Assembly: GCF_006345805.1 (NCBI RefSeq)
Contig: NW_021836037.1
Coordinates: 1-25,886 of the forward strand
Length of the DNA stretch: 25,886 nt
From: Octopus sinensis
Taxonomy: Eukaryota
Direction of reading: 5' to 3'
Part shown: piece by piece, positions 2,353 through 23,970 of the stretch
Layout of the letters: every line of letters begins with the position of its first letter
How positions within the stretch are numbered: position 1 is the first letter of the stretch
The notes under the pieces: model-generated
Databases searched by the model: none
What the model was told of the DNA's origin: nothing
The model's input: only the letters and a program-made list of their open reading frames with translations
Translations under genes and position numbers: made by a program

Positions 2353-2574
2353 AAGGCGACGTGCTGGCAGATTCGTTACCGCACCAGACAAAGTGCTTAG
2401 CTGCATTTCGTCTGTTCTTACGTCCTGAGTTGAAATTCCGCCGAGATCGTCTTTGACTTTTTATCTTTTCAAAGATCGATAAATCAAGATGCAGCTGAGC
2501 AATGGGGGTTGATATTATCGACTTAACCTCCCCACCACAACCGCCTACGAAATTGCTGTCCTTGTGCCCAAAAC
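2353..2574 (+). mobile_element. Old, diverged relative of SINE family A with a different 3' tail
   Basis: Colinear with the head and body at 19916-20080 (GCTGGCAGA, GAGTTGAAATTCCGCCGAG, ATCGACTTAA), then ends in AAATTGCTGTCCTTGTGCCCAAAA instead of the Tx1-type tail. Confidence 0.75.
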
Positions 2575-2577
2575 TGC

Positions 2578-2679
2578 AAGGCAAAGTCGACCTCGGCGGA
2601 ATCTGAACTCAGAACGTAGCGGCAGACGAAATACCGCTAAGCATTTCGCCCGGCCCGCTAACCTTTCTGCCAGCTCGCC
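2578..2679 (-). mobile_element. SINE family A, 5' part with an intact, unoccupied target site
   Basis: Reverse complement GGCGAGCTGGCAGAAAGGTTAGCGGGCCGGGCGAAATGCTTAGCGGTATTTCGTCTGCCGCTACGTTCTGAGTTCAGATTCCGCCGAGGTCGACTTTGCCTT matches 19919-20020. Confidence 0.9.
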
Positions 2680-3261: not shown

Positions 3262-3489
3262 TGAGTGAGTGTGTGTGGATGTAAGTGTGTGTATCTGTGT
3301 GTGTGTGTGTGTTTGTGTGTGTGTTTGTGTGCTCGAACGTGCGAATCAGTTGAATCAGGGCAAAAGAAAAAGATATGTAGAGAGAGACAGGGTAAGCTAG
3401 ATAGAAAGAGAGGAGAGAGAGTGTGTGCGGGGGGGGGGGGGGGGGGGGGGGTGAGATCTAAGTATTTAAATAATGATATATAGGATACA

Positions 3490-3709
3490 GGCGTGGCTCC
3501 GTGGTAAGAAGCTTGCTTCCTGACCTGTGGTTTTGGGTTCAGTCTCACTGTGTGGCATCTTGGGCAAATGTCTTCTACTCGGGCCGACCAAAGTCTTGTC
3601 AATGCATTTGGTGGACGGAAACTGAAAGAAGCCCGTCGTACATACATACATACATACGTACATATATACATACAGCATACATACATACATACATTTAATA
3701 TATATATAT

Positions 3710-3806: not shown

Positions 3807-4226
3807 GGTATGTATGTATGTATAAATGTACGACGGGTTTCACGGCAGGAGTGCAGATGAGGGCAGCTGCATCAACTCCCTCATGCACCAAATGTCAATT
3901 GCTAAAAAGCATTCGTGAAGTAAAATCATGTAGCAACACTGAATAGCGGTGCCCCAGCATGGCCACAGCTCGTGAGCTGAAACTAGATAAAATAAAATAA
4001 AATAAAATAAAATAAATATATATATATATGCATATGTATGTGATGGGGGTTCTGTGTCTGTATTTGTCTCCCCGCCACTGCTTGGCAACCGGTGTTCGTG
4101 TGTTTACGTCCCCGTGACTTAGCGGTTCAGTAAAAGACACCGATCTGACTTATTCAACTAAATCCCTTCATGGTGGTGCCCCAGCAAGGCCGCAGTCAAA
4201 TGACTGAAACAAATAGGAGATAAAAG
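3490..4226 (+). mobile_element. tRNA-derived SINE (family B) with an internal expanded (TA)/(TACA) microsatellite and a nested insertion
   Basis: Head GGCGTGGCTCCGTGGTAAG..GGGTTCAGTC and CTTGGGCAAATGTCTTC (3490-3641); 3' part 4052-4226 ends GGTGCCCCAGC..CAGTCAAATGACTGAAAC. A related head lies at 21048. Joining the two halves is inference. Confidence 0.6.
3842..4017 (+). mobile_element. 5'-truncated retroposon 3' end with (AAAAT)n tail
   Basis: GCGGTGCCCCAGCATGGCCACAGCTCGTGAGCTGAAACT followed by (AAAAT)n; the same tail occurs at 10030-10070. Confidence 0.65.
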
Positions 4227-4237
4227 GTATATATATA

Positions 4238-4782
<545 letters not shown>

Positions 4783-9794: not shown

Positions 9795-9866
9795 CATATA
9801 TGTATATGTAAATATATATACATATATACATATATATATACATATATACACATATACATATACGTA

Positions 9867-10100
9867 GAGGCGCAATGGCCTAGTGGTTAGGGCAGCGGAC
9901 TCGCGGTCGCAGGATCGAGGTTTCGATTCTCAGACTGGGCGTTGTGTGTGTTTATTGAGCGAAAACACCTAAAAGCTCTACGAGGCTCTGGCAGGGGGTG
10001 GTGATCCCTGCTGTACTCTTTCACCACAATGGCGGTGCCCCAGCATGGCCACAGCTCAAGAGCTGAAACTGGAAAAACAAAAACAAAAAACAAACAAAAC
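9867..10100 (+). mobile_element. SINE family C head and body joined to the GGTGCCCCAGC-type tail with (AAAAAC)n
   Basis: A box TGGCCTAGTGG, B box GTTTCGATTC; homology to 4238-4530 stops at CTCTTTCACCAC (~10027). Confidence 0.8.
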
Positions 10101-10648: not shown

Positions 10649-11189
10649 TATTTCTTTATTGCCCACAAGGGGCTAAACACGCAGGGGACAAACAAGGACA
10701 GACAAAGGGTTTAAATCGATTATATCGACGCCAGTAGGTAACTGGTAGTTATTTAATCGACCCCGAAAGGATGAAAGGTAAAGTCGACCTCGGCGGAATT
10801 TGAACTGAGAACATAGCGGCAGACGAAATACCTATTTCTTTACTACCCACAAGGGGTTAAATACAGAGGGGACAAACAAGGACAGACAACGGATTAAATC
10901 GATTAATCGACCCACAGTCGTAACTGGTACTTAATTTAATCGACTCCGAAAGGATGAAAGCAGTCGACCTCGGCGGAATTTGAACTCAGAACGTAGCGGC
11001 AGACGAATACCTATTTCTTTACTACCCAAAGGGCTAAACACAGAGGGAAAACAAAGGACAGACAAAGGATTAAGTCGATTACATCGACCCAGTGCGTAAC
11101 TGGTACTTAATTTATCGACCCCGAAAGGATGAAAGGCAAAGTCGACCTCGGCGGAATTTGAACTCAGAACGTAACGGCAGACGAATACC
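10649..11189 (-). repeat. Tandem array of three headless SINE-A units (~180 bp each); the head is displaced to 16493-16558 by the LINE
   Basis: Units 10649-10832, 10833-11011 and 11012-11189; each reads on the minus strand GGTATT(T)CGTCTGCCG..GTTCAAATTCCGCCGAGGTCGAC..TAAAGAAATA. Confidence 0.92.
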
Positions 11190-11438
11190 AATTTCTTTAT
11201 TGCCCACCGGGGGCCAAACATAGATATGGACAGTACAACTGATGGGATCAGTGAATCGATATGATTTTACATAAATGTGACATCAAAAATAAAATACAAT
11301 ACATAAAAATCGAATGGAATACACAGTACAAAAACAATACAAATGAAGCGATGATCAAGTTACGCTCCGATCCCACAAGCCCCGATCTACCGCTGATACC
11401 TTTTTATTTTTCCTTTTTTTTTTTTTTTCCTCGTCTAT

Positions 11439-14400
11439 TCACACGGTTCCTTGCACGCACAACACTCGTGCAACATACTTCCATCTCTTTTGGAACGTAC
11501 ACTCTGACAGACACCTCTTCTCCAGCCACAGTTTCCTTTTCAAATGAAAAGAAAAAAAGGATCGTAAATTGTCACCAGAGATAAAGTTGCCTGTCTTAAT
11601 TCCTTTTATCCTAGTATTCCATACAGCCTCTTTTGCTATTGCTACAACCGTGAGAAAACAATTCTTACCTTCGTTCGTTAGAACTCCCGGTGGGTCAATT
11701 TTTATAATTGACTCAGTCGACAGCCGTACTCTTCCTTCGCCGGACAACAGATGTTCAGCATAAGCCCACATTTCAGTTATCTCCGGACACTGAACAATAG
11801 CGTGAGGGACGGTTTCCTGTCCCCACCGCATCTTGGACAGGTCGGCGACTGACGTTTACCATGTCTTGCGAGCTTATCCCAAACGGGCAAGGCACCTCTG
11901 TAGCATTGCCAGGTTAAGGACTTTTGGAAGTTGTCCAACGTTCTCAACCCGAATGTACGATGAAACAAGCTGTCCAGTTGAATAAATCCGAGACCTAGAG
12001 TCGACCCCAGGCCATCGTCGCATTCAGACTCTACCACCCACTATATAAAATCCGTGTGGAACCCCCACCGCTGGCGTTGCCCGAGCGCCGGAACAGCAAG
12101 AGGGCCTTACGGCACTCTTTATGCCACTCACTCGACCTCGGTCTACGAGAACACCAGGCTTCCTGTTCGCAAAAACTCTTGAACTCAGGGAACATTTGTC
12201 TGGCCAGCGGAGACCACACCCGTTCACTATCCAGGAGAATCCAGAGGTGCCTCAACCTCAACGCATGTCTGCGCATCATTAACCAAGGCATCCCTAAACC
12301 TCCATTTAAAGGCTTTTGACAGCAGACAGAGCGTTTCACAAGTGGCGACCTGCCCTTCCACAAAAAGCGAAAGAGCTGTCTCTCCAACCTGATCAACCAC
12401 GAATCCGGACAGGGCACGACAGTCAGGCGGTAGGTAATGACCGATGCGATAAACACATTGGCCACTTCCGCCCTCCCTTTCAGGGATAGCCACCGCCAAG
12501 ACCAAGTCTTGACTACTGCAGCCACCCTGCTCAATACCTCCGTCCATTTCTTCTCTATCTGGAGGCCTGGTCCAAACCAGACTCCCAGCAACTTAACCGG
12601 TCCCTCCGTCCAGCGCCTAACAACACTGTCTGAAGGCATCGACTTGCCAACCCAGGTGCCGAGCTGCAAGCCGACCGACTTTTCCCGGTTAATCTTTGCT
12701 CCTGCTACCTCCTCGTAAGCCTCAATAGTCTTACCTACTTCACGTAGGCGTACCACTGTGGTTACACTGATAGTGATATCATCCGCGAAAGCCGTAACAA
12801 ACTCCTCTCTAGTCCTGGTTCTCTCGGGGATGCCACTCAACCTTTGCAGTAATGGCTCGAGAGCCATCACATACAAAAGTGGTGAAAGCGGACATCCTTG
12901 ACGAACCGAGCGTCTGATGCAGAACGGCTTCGAAAGGAAACCGTTCACCCGAACTATCGAGTCAATGTTGTGGTACAAAGCGATAAACCACCTGAGGAAG
13001 CCAAGGCCCAGGCCAAACCGCGCAAGTACAGTCGCTAGGTATCGATGGTCAACCCTATCAAAAGCTTTAGACTGGTCCAAATGCACCAATGCCCCACCTT
13101 TGCCAGATTTATTACCAAACCTCTCTATGGTATAGCGAATAAGATGGAGGGTATCCTGAATGGTTCTGCCTGGGATGGCACATGTCTGTGCCTCCCCGAC
13201 TATACCATTCGCGACACGCGCCAACCTTTTTGCTAGAACCTTGGCCAAAATCTTCACTTCTGCGTTTAACAGAGTGATGGGCCTGAAATTCTCTAGAACG
13301 TCCCCCTTGTCCGGGTCCTTTCTGACCAACGTCACTACTCCCCGGCGCACAGATCTGGGGATAAACCCATTCTGTTTCCAGTTCGCGTACACGTCAGTCA
13401 GTAGTTGCCCGAACAAGTCTGGCATACATTTATACAGCTCGTACGGAAGACCATCAAGTCCCGGTGACTTACCCGCTTTACAATCGGCCAAAGCCTCCAT
13501 CACCTCCTCAAGTGTGATTGGCCCTTCGCAAGACTCCGCATCCGACCCCGAGAGGCACGGCAGCCCGGTAAGAAAGTCCTCGAGGGCTCTCCCACCACCA
13601 GGACCGCCGTCACCCCCGAACAGCTGGGCGAAGTACTCCCGAAAGACCTCACACATTTTCTCGGGTTCGTTTATCAAGACACCATTTTGATTCGTCAAAG
13701 ACCGAATAGAGGAACTATTTCCTTGCCGAGCTTCCACCACTCGGGCCCATCCAGCGGCTTTGATTCCTTCACTTCCCATTGCACGTAACTTAGCTCTGGT
13801 AATACTTCCCATGTGGTGGGCTTCAAGATGCTGGTTTAACTCCAGTCTTTTCACCCTCGCTTGGTCTGTATTACCAGTCCTCCAGGCTTCTAGTTCCTTA
13901 ACTAGACCATCTCCTATTTTACGTCCCTTCTTAGCTAAACTTATGCTAAACCTAATAGACTCATATTTGATGGCTCTTTTTAGGGCGTACCACCATTTGT
14001 TATTAATGATGGTACCTGTTAATGCCCTCTGTATTAACATCTTGATCCGCTTTCTGTACTCCTCAATCGCCAAAAGGGACGTATTGAGTTTCCAGTAGCC
14101 AGATCCCTGTCTATGCAACTAGAAAAAACTGTGGACACTCAACTATGGACTTATCTTTTTCTCTAATTAAAATCCTATCTAGATATGTTCTGGTAGACCC
14201 GTCACTATTTGACCACGTCCACTGTGGAGTGTTCGGGTGCTCCAACCTATATGGATCTGCTAGCTGAAATTGACTTAGCAGATCCCGAAAGCCTGTGTTA
14301 CATTTTCTGTTCATGTTCGAGTTTGAGCCAACACCATCTGTGTGTGCTGCACATATTGTATTAGAGTCTCCTAACACTACTAGTGAATGCGACGTGGCTA

Positions 14401-14788
14401 GGAACTTTCCTAGGCCACGAAAATATTCAGTTTGCGGGCCAATAATGTTTGGTGCATAAATAGCGACCAGCCTGATTGTCTTGCCACAACTGAATGTCAA
14501 GTCGAGAACGACCAGCCTGCCTTCTGGGTCAGAAAAAACCAACTTTTTCTCGGCTACCCGGTTTCTTTTTAGTAGGACCAACACCCCACCCCCACCTCCC
14601 GCCCGACTCGGAGAAACGTATTTCTCGTAGCCGTTCAGGAGGGGGAGCAGATCTCTTGGCCCCTTCACCCGGGTTTCCGTTGCAACAATTACATCCAAAT
14701 TTCTCGACCTGATGTCATTCAGAAAGCGTCCTTGCTTCCAGCTTGACAACAGGCCATGAACATTTAAACAACCAATGTGAATAGCCAT
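11439..14788 (-). pseudogene. ORF2: APE endonuclease, reverse transcriptase and C-terminal CCHC (zf-RVT), broken into at least 4 frames
   Basis: EN: CLNVHGL, TET, AIYAPN, GDSN, YLDRIL. RT: KSPGLDGLPYE, FRPITLLN, LDQSKAFDRV, VRQGCPLSP, FADD, KLLGV. C-terminus: CPRC..ETVPHAIVQC. Breaks near 14115, 12035 and 11825. Confidence 0.93.
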
Positions 14789-14799
14789 CACTTACCTGT

Positions 14800-16356
14800 T
14801 TAATTAGGATTGTCCGGTGGAGGGGGACCCTCCACCTTTTTTTATCCAGGGTCGGAGGTGGACGGTCTTGGGAAATAGATTTGTCAAAATCCCGTCTCAC
14901 CACCGACACAGAATTATCAGGTGGAGGGGGAATCTCCACCTTTTCCTTTTCTCGCGGGATCGGAGCTGGTAATCCATGAAATATCGACTTGTTAAAATCT
15001 AATCTCAATGAAGATACAGTCTTTCTGTACTTATTTTGTAGAATTCTATAAGTCTTATTTGAGACTTCATATATGTCGTAATTGATAAATTCCTCTGAAA
15101 GGTTATCAATTTTTTTACAGTCTTTATGAGTTGAATGTCTCTCATGAGCTCAGTATCTTTAGTGTATACGGCTATTATGCCTTTTTCTTCTTTTTCTCTT
15201 CTGGCAGTCTTTTTTGGTCGTTGTTCTGTAGTAGTCGCCGCTCTCGGCTGGGTTGCTGGTTGTATTTTTCTTTTGTTTGTTGTTTTTTTCTCATCTGTTT
15301 CTTCTTTATCTTCTTCCTCTTTGTCTTTTTTCTCCTCTTCCTCTCTTCTTCATTTTCCTTGCAGTTCCTTCGAATGTGGCCTAATTGACCACATAAAAAA
15401 CATCGAGGTTTTCGGCCCTCAACAAACCACGAGGTTCTCCTCCCCTACCTCAATTGTCTCAGGAATTGTTTGAATTATTTTAGGGTCCGCTTGAATGAGA
15501 AGATTAATTGTTTTACCATCCCAGCGTGGGTTTTCCGTAGCGGTAGCCTGGAGGAGAGTAATTTTTTCTACCTCTTTGATTAGGACTGCCGCCAACACCA
15601 CATAGGTTCGACCTCTGGCGGGACCCTTGTAATTTTTATTCGCGACGTCCTCATCCCATATATAATAGGGTATTAACTCCACGTCGTTCGTTTTCAACGT
15701 TTCCACTGAGTTCTTGTGTGCTATTTCTTTATTGGTGAACCTTACTTCCACCGTTCCGAATTTTTTTCCTCTTCTCAGAAATACTACGTCTCGCCCAATA
15801 TTGGCTTTAAGCACTTTTCTATTTTCTCTTCTGACATTCTTTCAATTTTTCTATTTTGTAGACAATATGTTTTGAAAATTATTGTTTTTTGCTTTTCTTC
15901 TTCCTGTAATAACTTTTGCGGAGGTTCAATTTTCACACTGTTGTCATTTATTTCCATCATTTTGCTGTATTTCATAATTTCGCTTTTATTCGTCGACAGT
16001 ATCTGGGTTCCACCCCCAGCAGCCAACGCAAAACTTTTTTTTCCATTTTTTGGTTCTATCTGGATGCTAGGCACATCAATTATTCTCTTCGACACAATGC
16101 CTTTGTTCTCTGGCAAAGTCGGAAACTCTTCTGGTGAAAGTTCTGACGAGCTCTCAGACACATCTCCAAAAATATCAAATATATTATCCTCTCTGCTATT
16201 CCTTCTTGTAGCGGGGGAAACCCCTATTTCCTTGTCTGTAGTTGGCTCCTCGCCGGACATGTATTTCCTCCTCTCAACAGGAGAAACAAGTATTTCTGCT
16301 CCAACGGTAGGCTCCATGCTAGACGACATTCTTCCCCCCAAAGGGGGAATGAACAA
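14800..16356 (-). pseudogene. ORF1 (gag-like nucleic-acid-binding protein) with a zinc knuckle, frameshifted
   Basis: Pieces 15784-16356 and 15419-15814; then EGRKPRCFLCGQLGHIRRNC (CX2CX4HX4C, 15361-15402), a K/E-rich stretch and a Pro-rich end; lies directly upstream of ORF2. The start codon is uncertain. Confidence 0.8.
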
Positions 16357-16492
16357 CGCGTGCTACCACAAGCACTAAGTGTTTTCAATTGAAAACTCCA
16401 ACAGTTAAGTTATTCAACAGTTTAACAAGAAACAACAGTTGTTAACAATATTAACACCACGAAACAGCAATTCTTACTTCACGAACACATGT

Positions 16493-16558
16493 GCGGCAGA
16501 CGAAATACCGCTTAGCATTTCGCCCGGCGTGCTAACGTTTCTGCCAGCTCGCCGTCTT
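16493..16558 (-). mobile_element. SINE-A 5' head (A box) left upstream of the LINE insertion
   Basis: Reverse complement GGCGAGCTGGCAGAAACGTTAGCACGCCGGGCGAAATGCTAAGCGGTATTTCGTCTGCCGC, nearly identical to 19919-19979. Confidence 0.92.
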
Positions 16559-17550: not shown

Positions 17551-17867
17551 TCAGTAGTTTTATTTTAATAGCGTGCTTTCACTTCACTACCGAGCGCAGG
17601 TCTGTGTGCCTTAGGTATGTGATGTGATTTGTTGTGATGCTCTGATGGTTATTGTATGGAAAGTGTTCTGCGTAGGATGTGTGCAGTGCCTAGTAGTGCA
17701 ATTTTCTGTATGTTATATGTGTTTGTAAGTCCTGGTGTTTTTGTTATGTATTTGTCTGAATGTTTTTTTATCATGCCTAATGTACCTATTATGATAGGGA
17801 TTGTTTCTGCTTTTGGATTCCACATTCTGGTTACCTCTATTTCCAGGTCTTTGTATTTTGAAAGTTT
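17551..17867 (-). mobile_element. 5'-truncated R4/Dong-like (RLE-type) non-LTR element 3' end within (TAA)n
   Basis: Minus-strand translation LSKYKDLEIEVTRMWNPKAETIPIIIGTLGMIKK..IQKIALLGTAHILRRTLSIQ* (stop 17649-17651) is the R4/Dong-type C-terminus; flanked by TAA repeats, the known Dong target. Confidence 0.8.
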
Positions 17868-18186
17868 ATTATTATTATTAATGCCTAATGCACCTATTAT
17901 GATAGGGCTTGTTTCTGCTTTTAGATTCCACTTCCGGTTACCTCTATTTCCAGGTCTTTGTATTTTGAAAGTTTATTATTATTATTAATGCCTAATGCAC
18001 CTATTATGATAGGGCTTGTTTCTGCTTTTAGATTCCACTTCTGGTTACCTCTATTTCCAGGTCTTTGTATTTTGAAAGTTTATTATTATTATTAATGCCT
18101 AATGCACCTATTATGATAGGGCGTGTTTCTGCTTTTAGATTCCACATTCTGGTTACCTCTATTTTCAGGTCTTTGTATTTTGAAAG

Positions 18187-18188
<2 letters not shown>
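17773..18188. repeat. Four ~107-bp tandem units made of the Dong-like 5' junction plus (TAT)n
   Basis: Units start ATGCCTAATG at 17773, 17881, 17988 and 18095. Confidence 0.92.
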
Positions 18189-18230
<42 letters not shown>

Positions 18231-19915: not shown

Positions 19916-20879
19916 GGAGGCGAGCTGGCAGAAACGTTAGCACGCCGGGCGAAATGCTTAGCGGTATTTCGTCTGCTGCTACGTTCTGAGTTCAAATTCC
20001 GCCGAGGTCGACTTTGCCTTTCATCCTTTCGGGGTCGATAATTAAGTACCATTTACGCACTGTGTCGAGTAATCGACTTAATACCTATGTCTGTCCTTGT
20101 TTGTCCCCTCTATGTTTACCCCTTGTGGATAATAAAGAATAGGTATTTCGGTCTGCTGCTACGGTTCTGATTTCAAATTCCCCGAGGTCGACTTTGCCTT
20201 TCATCCTTTCGGGGTCGATTAAATAAGTACCAGTTACGCACTGGGGTCGATGTAATCGACTTAATACCTATGTCTGTCCTTCTTTGTCCCCTCTATGTTT
20301 AGCCCCCTTGGGGTAATAAAGAAATAGGTATTTCGTCTGCTGCTACGTTCTTGAGTTCAAATTCCGCCGAGGTCGACTTTGCCTTTCATCCTTTCGGGGT
20401 CGATTAAATAAGTACCAGTTACGCACTGGAGTCGATATAATCGACTTAATCCGTTTGTCTGTCCTTGTTTGTCCCCTCTATGTTTAGCCCCTTGTGGGTA
20501 ATAAAGAAATAGGTATTTCGTCTGCTGCTACGTTCTGAGTTCAAATTCCGCTGAGGTCGACTTTGCCTTTCATCCTTTCGGGGTCGATTAAATAAGTACC
20601 AGTTACGCACTGGGGTCGATGTAATCGACTTAATACCTATGTCTGTCCTTGTTTGTCCCCTCTATGTTTAGCCCCTTGTGGGTAATAAAGAAATAGGTAT
20701 TTCGTCTGCTGCTACATTCTGAGTTCAAATTCTGCCGAGGTCGACTTTGCCTTTCATCCTTTCGGGGTCGATTAAATAAGTACCAGTTACGCACTGGGGT
20801 CGATATAATCGACTTAATCCGTTTGTCTGTCCTTGTTTGTACTCTCTGTGTTTAGCCCCTTGTGGGTAGTAAAGAAATA
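19916..20879 (+). mobile_element. SINE-A tandem array: one tRNA-like head plus five ~184-bp body/tail units, flanked by a 14-bp TSD
   Basis: Units start GGTATTTCG at 19963, 20142, 20327, 20512 and 20696; B box GAGTTCAAATTCC; TSD GATATCAAATAAAG at 19885-19898 and 20880-20893. Confidence 0.93.
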
Positions 20880-21047
20880 GATATCAAATAAAGCTATATA
20901 TTTCAGACTAACTGATTAGAGCTCGTTTTGGAAGGGACATGATTACATGATATTGAGAAATCGTATCATCTCAGAAATAGGCAGCTGAGATGCGAATTTG
21001 TTTCACTTCGTTATTAAGTATTTTGTGTCTTTAACACAATACGTCTA

Positions 21048-21180
21048 GGCGTAGCTGTATGGTAAGAAGTTTGTTTCTCAACCGCATGGTCCCGGGTTCA
21101 GTGCCACTGTGTCACATGTCATCTACTATAGCCTCGGACCGACCAAAATCTTGATATGGTTGGTACAAACTGAAAGAGTT
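21048..21180 (+). mobile_element. Diverged SINE family B 5' part
   Basis: Colinear with 3490-3635 (GGTAAGAAG, GGGTTCAGT, CCGACCAAA, AAACTGAAAGA). Confidence 0.7.
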
Positions 21181-23536: not shown

Positions 23537-23970
23537 AATGCTCCTGCAAAGAGAAGCAACAGAAATACACTACATAGACAAAACAATGCTCCTGCAAAGA
23601 CATGCAACAGAAATACACTACATACACAACACAATGCTCCTGCAAAGAGAAGCAACAGAAATACACTACATAGACAAAACAATGCTCCTGCAAAGACATG
23701 CAACAGAAATACACTACATACACAACACAATGCTCCTGCAAAGACAAGCAACAGAAATACACTACATACACAACACAATGCTCCTGCAAAGACAAGCAAC
23801 AGAAATACACTACATACACAACACAATGCTCCTGCAAAGACAAGCAACAGAAATACACTACATACACAACACAATGCTCCTGCAAAGACAAGCAACAGAA
23901 ATACACTACATACACAACACAATGCTCCTGCAAAGAGAAGCAACAGAAATACACTACATATACAACACAA
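23537..23970. repeat. 48-bp minisatellite, 9 copies
   Basis: Unit AATGCTCCTGCAAAGA(G/C)A(A/T)GCAACAGAAATACACTACATA(C/G)ACAA(C/A)AC. Confidence 0.95.

Follow-up and report, generated by a model that had tools for sequence, protein, structure and literature searches.

A Site-Specific L1/Tx1-Type LINE of Octopus sinensis Lands Mainly in a SINE That Has Its Tail and Its Target Site

Results

The LINE Occupies One Position in the Head of SINE-A

The window analysed here is the whole 25,886-bp stretch of Octopus sinensis DNA (contig NW_021836037.1, positions 1 to 25,886). Its minus strand carries a long interspersed nuclear element (LINE) inserted into a 231-bp tRNA-like short interspersed nuclear element (SINE), named SINE-A in this study. 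The comparison with copies found in the 2.72-Gb assembly containing the window strongly supports that the LINE is site-specific and that its main target is a SINE having the LINE's tail and using the same site, a variant of the known target-specific LINE–SINE pairs. The genomic loci and copies retrieved for comparison are labelled L followed by a number.

On the minus strand, the SINE head ending in AATGCTAAGC is followed by the 5' copy of the target duplication, GGTATTTCGTCTGCCG (16509-16494), the LINE (16493-11190), the 3' copy of the duplication, GGTATTCGTCTGCCG (11189-11175), and the remainder of the SINE. The initial annotation, made from the window alone, had proposed that the LINE splits SINE-A between its RNA polymerase III (Pol III) A and B boxes and duplicates its target with the loss of one base. 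Both points were confirmed, as an A-box-like motif (16536-16546) lies 5' of the LINE and a B-box-like motif (11165-11153) lies 3' of it, and the 15-bp 3' copy is one T shorter than the 16-bp 5' copy. The same annotation had equated the LINE breakpoint with the joint between SINE array units. Indeed, every joined unit of the two arrays of the window (10649-11189 and 19916-20879) restarts at SINE position 49, which is the LINE's base. The features concerned are listed below.

16494-16556, minus strand: 5' part of the host SINE-A with the tRNA-like head, the A box (16536-16546, by the Pol III consensus) and the 5' duplication copy (16494-16509)
11190-16493, minus strand: LINE of L1/Tx1 type, full-length (5304 bp), broken by indels
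14800-16329, minus strand: open reading frame 1 (ORF1), interrupted in the window copy; 509 aa with a CCHC zinc knuckle in the open copies L047 and L063
11439-14788, minus strand: ORF2, interrupted in the window copy; 1133 aa in the open copies, with an APE endonuclease, a reverse transcriptase (RT) and zf-RVT
11190-11438, minus strand: the LINE's 3' untranslated region (UTR), without poly(A); its final ~45 bases match the SINE-A tail
11012-11189, minus strand: SINE-A unit adjoining the LINE, with the 3' duplication copy (11175-11189), the B box (11153-11165), the body and a LINE-type tail
10649-11011, minus strand: two more headless SINE-A units, both restarting at the target base
19916-20879, plus strand: second SINE-A array of one headed unit and four units joined at the target base; the LINE-free site is visible here

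The annotation had described the LINE as a target-specific family, a claim that random flanks at other genomic 3' ends would have overturned. For the examination of these flanks, 40 loci were used, namely all the scored matches of a 3' UTR search, whose selection required a perfect match to the 3' UTR and took no account of the flanks. The motif (C/G)GTATT directly follows the LINE 3' end in all 40 copies. Beyond it lies a SINE in 39 of them and an older LINE copy in the remaining one (L032). At the 5' side, a SINE head stands at the recorded junction in 38 of the 40 copies, with a different flank each time, while in L054 and L061 the recorded junction is an internal break.

A pattern search gave 131 LINE ends, and the exact sequence AATT(C/G)GTATTTC was counted by hand in 87 of the 100 ends listed (53 with C and 34 with G). 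Eleven of the other 13 were fetched: five are SINE hosts with an altered site, four continue into a different LINE whose start is a remnant of the site, and the last two are a SINE variant and an off-target end. The two unfetched ends read as the site with one change. The SINE variant (L185) had at first been taken for an off-target LINE end and was removed from the 100 listed rows. Of the 99 listed ends that were left, 98 were at the site, the last letter of the search pattern slightly biasing the listing toward on-target ends. Thus, nearly all the flanks proved to be the SINE site, which is far beyond chance, L186 being the one real off-target copy, and the claim of target specificity was borne out. 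The 5'-truncated copy L017 occupies the same site as well.

Do these junctions reflect true insertions? The host SINE's own outer duplication encloses the head, the LINE and the body in 11 of 32 loci, as compared with 0 of 992 mismatched pairs, and the outer flanks are unique to each LINE locus. We therefore conclude that these are true insertions into pre-existing SINEs. The outer duplication was not detected in the other 21 of the 32 loci, many of which run into another nested site at which the comparison halted.

The two copies of the 16-bp duplication were compared in 35 loci, five being omitted. The same first duplicated base (C or G) was found on either side in 35/35 loci, and positions 1-6 also agree in 35/35, but the copies often differ distally (position 14: 15/35). 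Because of these differences beyond positions 1-6, the distal part of the 5' copy is probably partly element-templated. Taken together, the LINE enters the SINE immediately ahead of (C/G)GTATTTCG, between the A and B boxes at position 48/49, and up to 16 bp of the target are duplicated.

The C:G ratio of the LINE hosts (53:34 among the ends listed) tracks that of the intact heads: the 100 listed out of at least 27,698 intact sites comprise 59 C and 41 G. One LINE subclade sits in C-type hosts in 14/14 cases, as compared with 11/24 for the other copies (p=0.0009). The hosts have a LINE-type tail in 37 of 41 young copies, the remaining four tails being of no assigned type. Meanwhile, the older copies L177, L193, L194 and L196 and the young copies L158 and L195 sit in SINEs with other tails. 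With 137 to 301 copies against at least 27,698 intact sites, the LINE occupies at most about 1% of them and therefore hardly limits the SINE. Of the earlier suggestion that the insertion separates the Pol III boxes, the splitting of the A and B boxes stands and the silencing of the individual host would be expected, but the SINE family as a whole is hardly affected.

Contigs of two sequencing runs with different organism codes (X1 record 1 and X2 record 24) also bridge the LINE 3' end into the SINE. The strand, starts and ends are unreadable from these contigs, which give a weak hint that the arrangement is common to more than one organism.

Structure, Age and Affiliation of the LINE

The window copy differs from the natural copy L047 by 4 substitutions and 15 indel events. 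ORF2 of the open copies matches PF03372, PF00078 and PF13966; its best solved relative is human L1 ORF2p (E=1.8e-64), as compared with E=1.6e-20 for R2. ORF1 matches PF00098 (CCHC zinc knuckle) above the cut-off of this family, and the domain search gave no match to an L1 ORF1 family. An ORF1 with a CCHC knuckle instead of the vertebrate L1 ORF1 family is a feature of the Tx1 clade. The LINE also has the traits of the L1 group, namely a separate upstream ORF1, a target-site duplication and 5'-truncated copies (e.g., L017, L186 and L190). The domain and ORF architecture would place it in the L1 group (L1/Tx1), and membership in Tx1 is a putative assignment that fits this architecture, on structural criteria rather than a reference tree. 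Kojima speaks of target preference when more than 20% of flanks are of one type (PMC4494074); the corresponding values of the LINE are 40/40 and 98/99.

The closest named relative of ORF2 is an Argonauta protein. In a tree of 30 RT regions, rooted for drawing only and containing no reference Tx1 or L1 elements, the element groups with its sister families, an Argonauta protein and unnamed proteins. A coral protein that its source calls 'Transposon TX1' has 37% identity and falls on a separate branch. The homolog searches, the cluster look-up and the Atlas showed no named reference Tx1 elements among the relatives.

The family is young, as the mean pairwise difference between 38 full-length copies is 0.66%, a value that leaves out the rearranged copies L054 and L061. 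The genome contains 137 exact 3' ends and 301 candidates by 3' UTR. Older copies at 86-93% exist, few of which were seen.

SINE-A Ends in the LINE Tail and Uses the Same Base

SINE-A is very abundant, one variant of its tail alone having 46,186 exact matches, and like the tRNA-derived SINEs (SINE2) it is short and interspersed. Its final ~45 bases align with the LINE 3' end. It is composed of an old head and body (positions 1 to ~168) and ~45-60 bases matching the 3' end of the LINE lineage. Stand-alone copies are often flanked by duplications of 10-19 bp together with a few extra A's at the 5' end. The head contains A- and B-box-like motifs (by the Pol III consensus) and folds as a long hairpin; ARAGORN found no tRNA in it, and Rfam found no tRNA or small nuclear RNA (snRNA), only microsatellite-driven microRNA noise. 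No significant structure emerged when the tail common to both elements was folded (z 0.15 to 0.99). Octopus SINEs named OK, OR1 and OR2 were reportedly published by Ohshima and Okada in 1994.

Some further details of the SINE were observed. The cut site adjoins the hairpin loop (SINE positions 30-59; window 16498-16527). At the position that closes the loop, one head variant has a G-C pair where the other has U-G, the changes being linked in 98 of the 100 sites listed, which may be covariation or two linked subfamily changes. One SINE-A monomer (L072:1299-1529) has several T3 runs and no T4; Pol III would therefore run past the tail and on into either the flank or the unit that follows.

Where SINE-A itself inserts was examined on 100 listed tails, which are the first places of contig C1 only. 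By hand count, 32 of them are joined at the target base, 1 at a second site near the A box and 67 elsewhere, and among these 67 the tail is followed by GGTA in 25 cases and by TAT in 20. Genome-wide, GGTATT follows 47% of SINE-A tails, and exact tail-to-site junctions number 14,446. Since the 47% includes non-self sites and amplified arrays, 32/100 (listed) and 65/171 are better estimates.

Two kinds of loci are especially informative. In 15 mixed dimers, a SINE-A unit is joined at the site to an older host with another tail. The upstream bodies are 12% divergent versus 18% for the hosts, and the two differ by 19% within a locus; part of these loci had been retrieved with another aim, such as selection for C-type junctions. 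The mixed dimers, whose tails differ, are beyond what local duplication can make. The second kind are full-length nested SINEs, recognised by the duplication, AA and a new head, which were seen at 72 loci among 100 listed rows versus 10 loci at a control position. Among the nested loci listed, 13 end their duplication exactly where the LINE's ends. Moreover, C-type junctions occur in C-type heads. These results show that SINE-A inserts at the same base of its own family and of older sister families, while elsewhere it prefers GGTA/TATA starts with duplications of 10-19 bp.

The view that all array junctions are independent insertions was rejected because of the similarity of neighbouring units and the imbalance between G-type and C-type junctions. 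Contrary to this simple view, the difference between adjacent units falls below the 5th percentile of random pairs in 27 of 69 cases, and in arrays of at least four units the median difference between neighbours is 4%. The dimers are 7.8% divergent, as compared with 9.6% for random pairs. In L117, an array of at least eight SINE-A units has common private changes, a clear case of local amplification. Many array units thus come from local amplification. The two head types also behave differently: the array continues directly after the first unit in 0/23 C-head and 12/26 G-head copies, and at non-self sites TAT starts were found in 12/23 C-head versus 1/13 G-head copies (p=0.011).

Apart from the target base, a second recurring junction was seen at SINE position ~15, where the tail is joined to AGAAACGTTAGC in the A-box region (e.g., L051, L053, L069, L081, L115 and L121); position 15 is the start of nine SINE units. 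A 65-67 bp unit consisting of the SINE head, the duplication and AA forms local tandem runs at C3430:1379-2207, C1:195358956-195359244 and C7:15322785-15323078.

SINEs with Other Tails and LINEs with the Same Tail

At least two older SINE families have the same head and body as SINE-A up to approximately position 168 and end in other tails. One of them is represented in the window:

2355-2580, plus strand: old sister-family SINE with the same head and body (74% identity, positions 1-169) and another tail

In these SINEs, the site followed the tail in 0 of 58 local cases, and genome-wide there are 27 tail-to-site matches against at least 5,151 tails. As the target head is common to older SINE families, the LINE–SINE loop probably arose by tail capture. 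As the site lies within the head and body of the older SINEs and LINE copies are found there, the partner is not the only target, and the target is probably older than the partner.

Sister LINE families with many open ORF2 copies carry the same 3' motif and have other recurring targets (L160-L176; C6:112816500-112842500 and C9:70498000-70511000). One target is a 441-bp tandem repeat, with a 17-bp duplication in L163; L164 and L167 have a common 3' flank. Another is the recurring ACAACATGGAG site (L168, L173, L174 and L176). Sister LINEs are also found at the 5' ends of other LINEs, and head-to-tail LINE trains occur. Within the LINE family itself, the older copy L177 has a tail end nearly identical to that of the SINE.

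Other repeats were noted in the window. At 2355-2679, the old other-tail SINE (plus strand) lies directly against a minus-strand head of its superfamily that is truncated at the 3' side. Further SINE-like repeats with tRNA-like heads, two families by eye, are located at 9865-10070, 4130-4530, 3488-3630 and 21045-21180; in L083, SINE-A is inserted in one of these other tRNA-headed repeats, at a GGTAAG site. A tandem array of four 107-bp units at 17773-18202 by eye resembles the 3' end of another LINE, and nine 48-bp units form an array at 23537-23970.

Discussion

A Model for the LINE–SINE Loop

We consider it likely that a site-specific LINE of L1/Tx1 type targets the head of a SINE superfamily, that one of these SINEs captured the LINE's tail, and that the resulting SINE-A was mobilised by the LINE lineage. 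The lineage would first have targeted the old tRNA-like head of the superfamily, inserting by target-primed reverse transcription after a first nick ahead of the C/G base, the second nick falling up to 16 bases beyond it. One target SINE would then have captured the tail of a LINE already landing in it, giving rise to SINE-A and closing the loop. The ORF2 protein of the lineage, probably that of older subfamilies given the ages, would recognise the tail and mobilise SINE-A. Copied to tens of thousands of places, SINE-A would have become the main landing site and multiplied the targets of the LINE.

The endonuclease presumably sets the site, helped by read-through RNA that would pair with the nicked primer. 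Judging by the distal mismatches of the 5' duplication, newly made DNA would often be joined to the upstream target through homology; a nested SINE would therefore usually lack a second head, and arrays of a head followed by unit after unit would arise. Further growth of such arrays would be by local duplication, and they may also be mobile as multimers. An insertion of the LINE would silence the host SINE as a Pol III template, while after SINE self-insertion the A box and the B box would still stand together. The linkage of one LINE subclade with C-type hosts, of G-heads with GGTA and of C-heads with TAT fits read-through RNA pairing with the primer, and timing or small endonuclease changes could also account for it. 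A bolder version, which we hold only tentatively and at somewhat below even chances, is that a prey SINE became a self-targeting passenger making landing sites once it had captured the LINE tail, that target choice is partly inherited via read-through flank bases, and that this feedback could explain both the arrays of the SINE and its rank among the most abundant SINE families of the genome.

The partnership of SINE-A with the LINE, considered as a SINE–LINE pair of the stringent type, is well supported, though indirectly, by the common tail, site and second-strand position and by the GGTA preference. The initial annotation had called the target the LINE's own non-autonomous partner. This stands with respect to the common tail, the common site and the preference for GGTA; the partner is not the exclusive target, however, and since sister LINE families have the same tail, mobilisation by the LINE of the window is inferred rather than shown.

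Several observations weigh against this model. The tail motif is also present in the sister LINE families, whose RT is ~80% identical, and one of them matches part of the SINE tail equally well or better. With 0.66% pairwise difference, the sampled LINE family is of far more recent date than the SINE burst, for which the median pairwise value is 9.6%. Only 109 matches were obtained for full-length nested SINEs, which are thus rare, and their enrichment is approximately 7-fold over a single control, uncorrected for its background abundance. Most SINE-A insertions are off-site (67/100 listed) whereas the LINE is nearly strict. Finally, array junctions are 21,724 G-type versus 194 C-type, unlike the LINE junctions, while the intact heads stand at ~59 C to 41 G.

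The strongest alternative, which we regard as unlikely, accepts that the LINE targets the SINE head and assigns the mobilisation of SINE-A mainly to a tail-sharing sister Tx1-like family or to an extinct relative, so that the loop would hold for the lineage only. The 3' motif and the many open ORF2 copies of the sister families would suit such a driver, as would the young LINE postdating the SINE burst, and the preference of C-head copies for TAT starts at non-self sites (12/23 versus 1/13, p=0.011) may indicate a second one. However, the sister families seen insert elsewhere (the 441-bp tandem repeat, the ACAACATGGAG site and the 5' ends of other LINEs) and none at GGTATT, whereas SINE-A uses precisely the base and the second-strand position of the LINE, and a tail end nearly identical to the SINE's is present in the older LINE copy L177.

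Considerably less probable is an origin of the SINE arrays by DNA-level duplication between a flanking GGTAT and the internal GGTAT followed by unequal exchange, with the LINE junction as a by-product and no self-targeting. Long arrays are indeed homogenised, as seen from the 4% median and the 27/69 close pairs, head-only units of 65 bp also form local runs, and comparable SINE arrays of bivalves and reptiles have been attributed to recombination (PMC11481361, PMC10702118). But the mixed dimers, the C-type junctions in C-type heads and the full-length nested copies with a duplication and AA need real insertions, the same-head SINEs with other tails lack such arrays, and the dimers are nearly as divergent as random pairs. 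DNA-level duplication thus explains the growth of the arrays and not their origin.

That the flanking SINE is part of the LINE, i.e., a SINE-derived head and tail carried on the LINE RNA so that constant flanks are inherited and not chosen, was rejected as highly improbable. In its favour, the 5' duplication frequently ends in bases unlike those of the 3' copy, and these recur from locus to locus, which makes it probable that a few target bases travel on the RNA, and some crocodilian Tx1-Mar families carry snRNA heads (PMC4494074), but the flanking SINEs differ by several percent against 0.66% for the LINEs, private host variants are present in both duplication copies (L043 and L065), and the outer host duplication surrounds the entire head, LINE and body.

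Under the favoured model of a LINE lineage mobilising SINE-A, the passenger SINE appears to supply landing sites for its driver LINE. The safe harbours of known site-specific LINEs are host genes, simple repeats or unrelated transposons; here, the LINE's own enzyme would spread the harbour, thereby creating a LINE–SINE feedback loop. The model offers a concrete route for the birth of a SINE, in which a target captures the tail of its attacker, and would explain the tandem structure of a very abundant cephalopod SINE. Because the family is young and has naturally open copies, and because the site exists in two natural variants and, intact, tens of thousands of times, the shares of the endonuclease and of RNA pairing in target choice are directly testable. 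The ~80% identical sister families with other targets form a natural series for comparing changes in APE endonuclease specificity.

Comparison with Known Systems

A passenger or an element that creates new landing sites is familiar from L1 and Alu, the A-rich tails of Alu being L1 endonuclease sites, and from the self-insertion of Zepp in Chlorella. Unlike here, the L1 site is a short genome-wide motif whose use does not split the Alu promoter, and Zepp has no SINE partner.

Strict sequence-specific insertion of APE-type LINEs into a multicopy target is known from Tx1L of Xenopus in the Tx1D transposon, Keno in U2 snRNA genes, and Kibi and Koshi in microsatellites, as summarised in PMC4494074; the endonuclease specificity of Tx1L is described in PMC1950540. 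In contrast to SINE-A, these targets (DNA transposons, RNA genes and simple repeats) spread independently of the LINE. In the ribosomal DNA elements R2/R1, RNA extended into the downstream target can pair with the primer, as with the read-through RNA of R2Ol (PMC6530143), and a similar pairing is proposed here for the C/G and GGTA/TATA preferences. Those elements belong to other clades and target a host gene, and in the octopus system the pairing step is presumed. The SINE-derived tandem arrays of bivalves and squamates (PMC11481361, PMC10702118) resemble those of SINE-A in consisting of SINE parts and in being homogenised when long; they differ in that the junction here is the LINE target base and that array formation depends on the LINE-type tail.

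In their available portions, neither the octopus repeat papers (PMC13282606, PMC9115989 and PMC12988792) nor the SINE papers (PMC3747384, PMC4758252, PMC3531059, PMC11481361 and PMC10702118) report a LINE targeting the SINE that it mobilises. The literature searches likewise found no closed LINE–SINE loop; subscription papers, supplements, Repbase and Dfam were outside their scope and may hold a description.

The nearest known case is that of the crocodilian Tx1-Mar LINEs and SINEU SINEs, which have a common preferred site in Mariner-N4_AMi (Kojima 2015, PMC4494074). In both systems, a Tx1-type LINE and its probable SINE passenger have the same site, the duplication is 16 bp, tandem SINE copies are separated by the duplication, and the partnership was deduced from the common target. 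While Mariner-N4_AMi is a third-party target, the site described here lies in the SINE's own head, so that the passenger multiplies the target; in addition, SINE-A has the LINE's tail, and the specificity of the LINE is near 99%.

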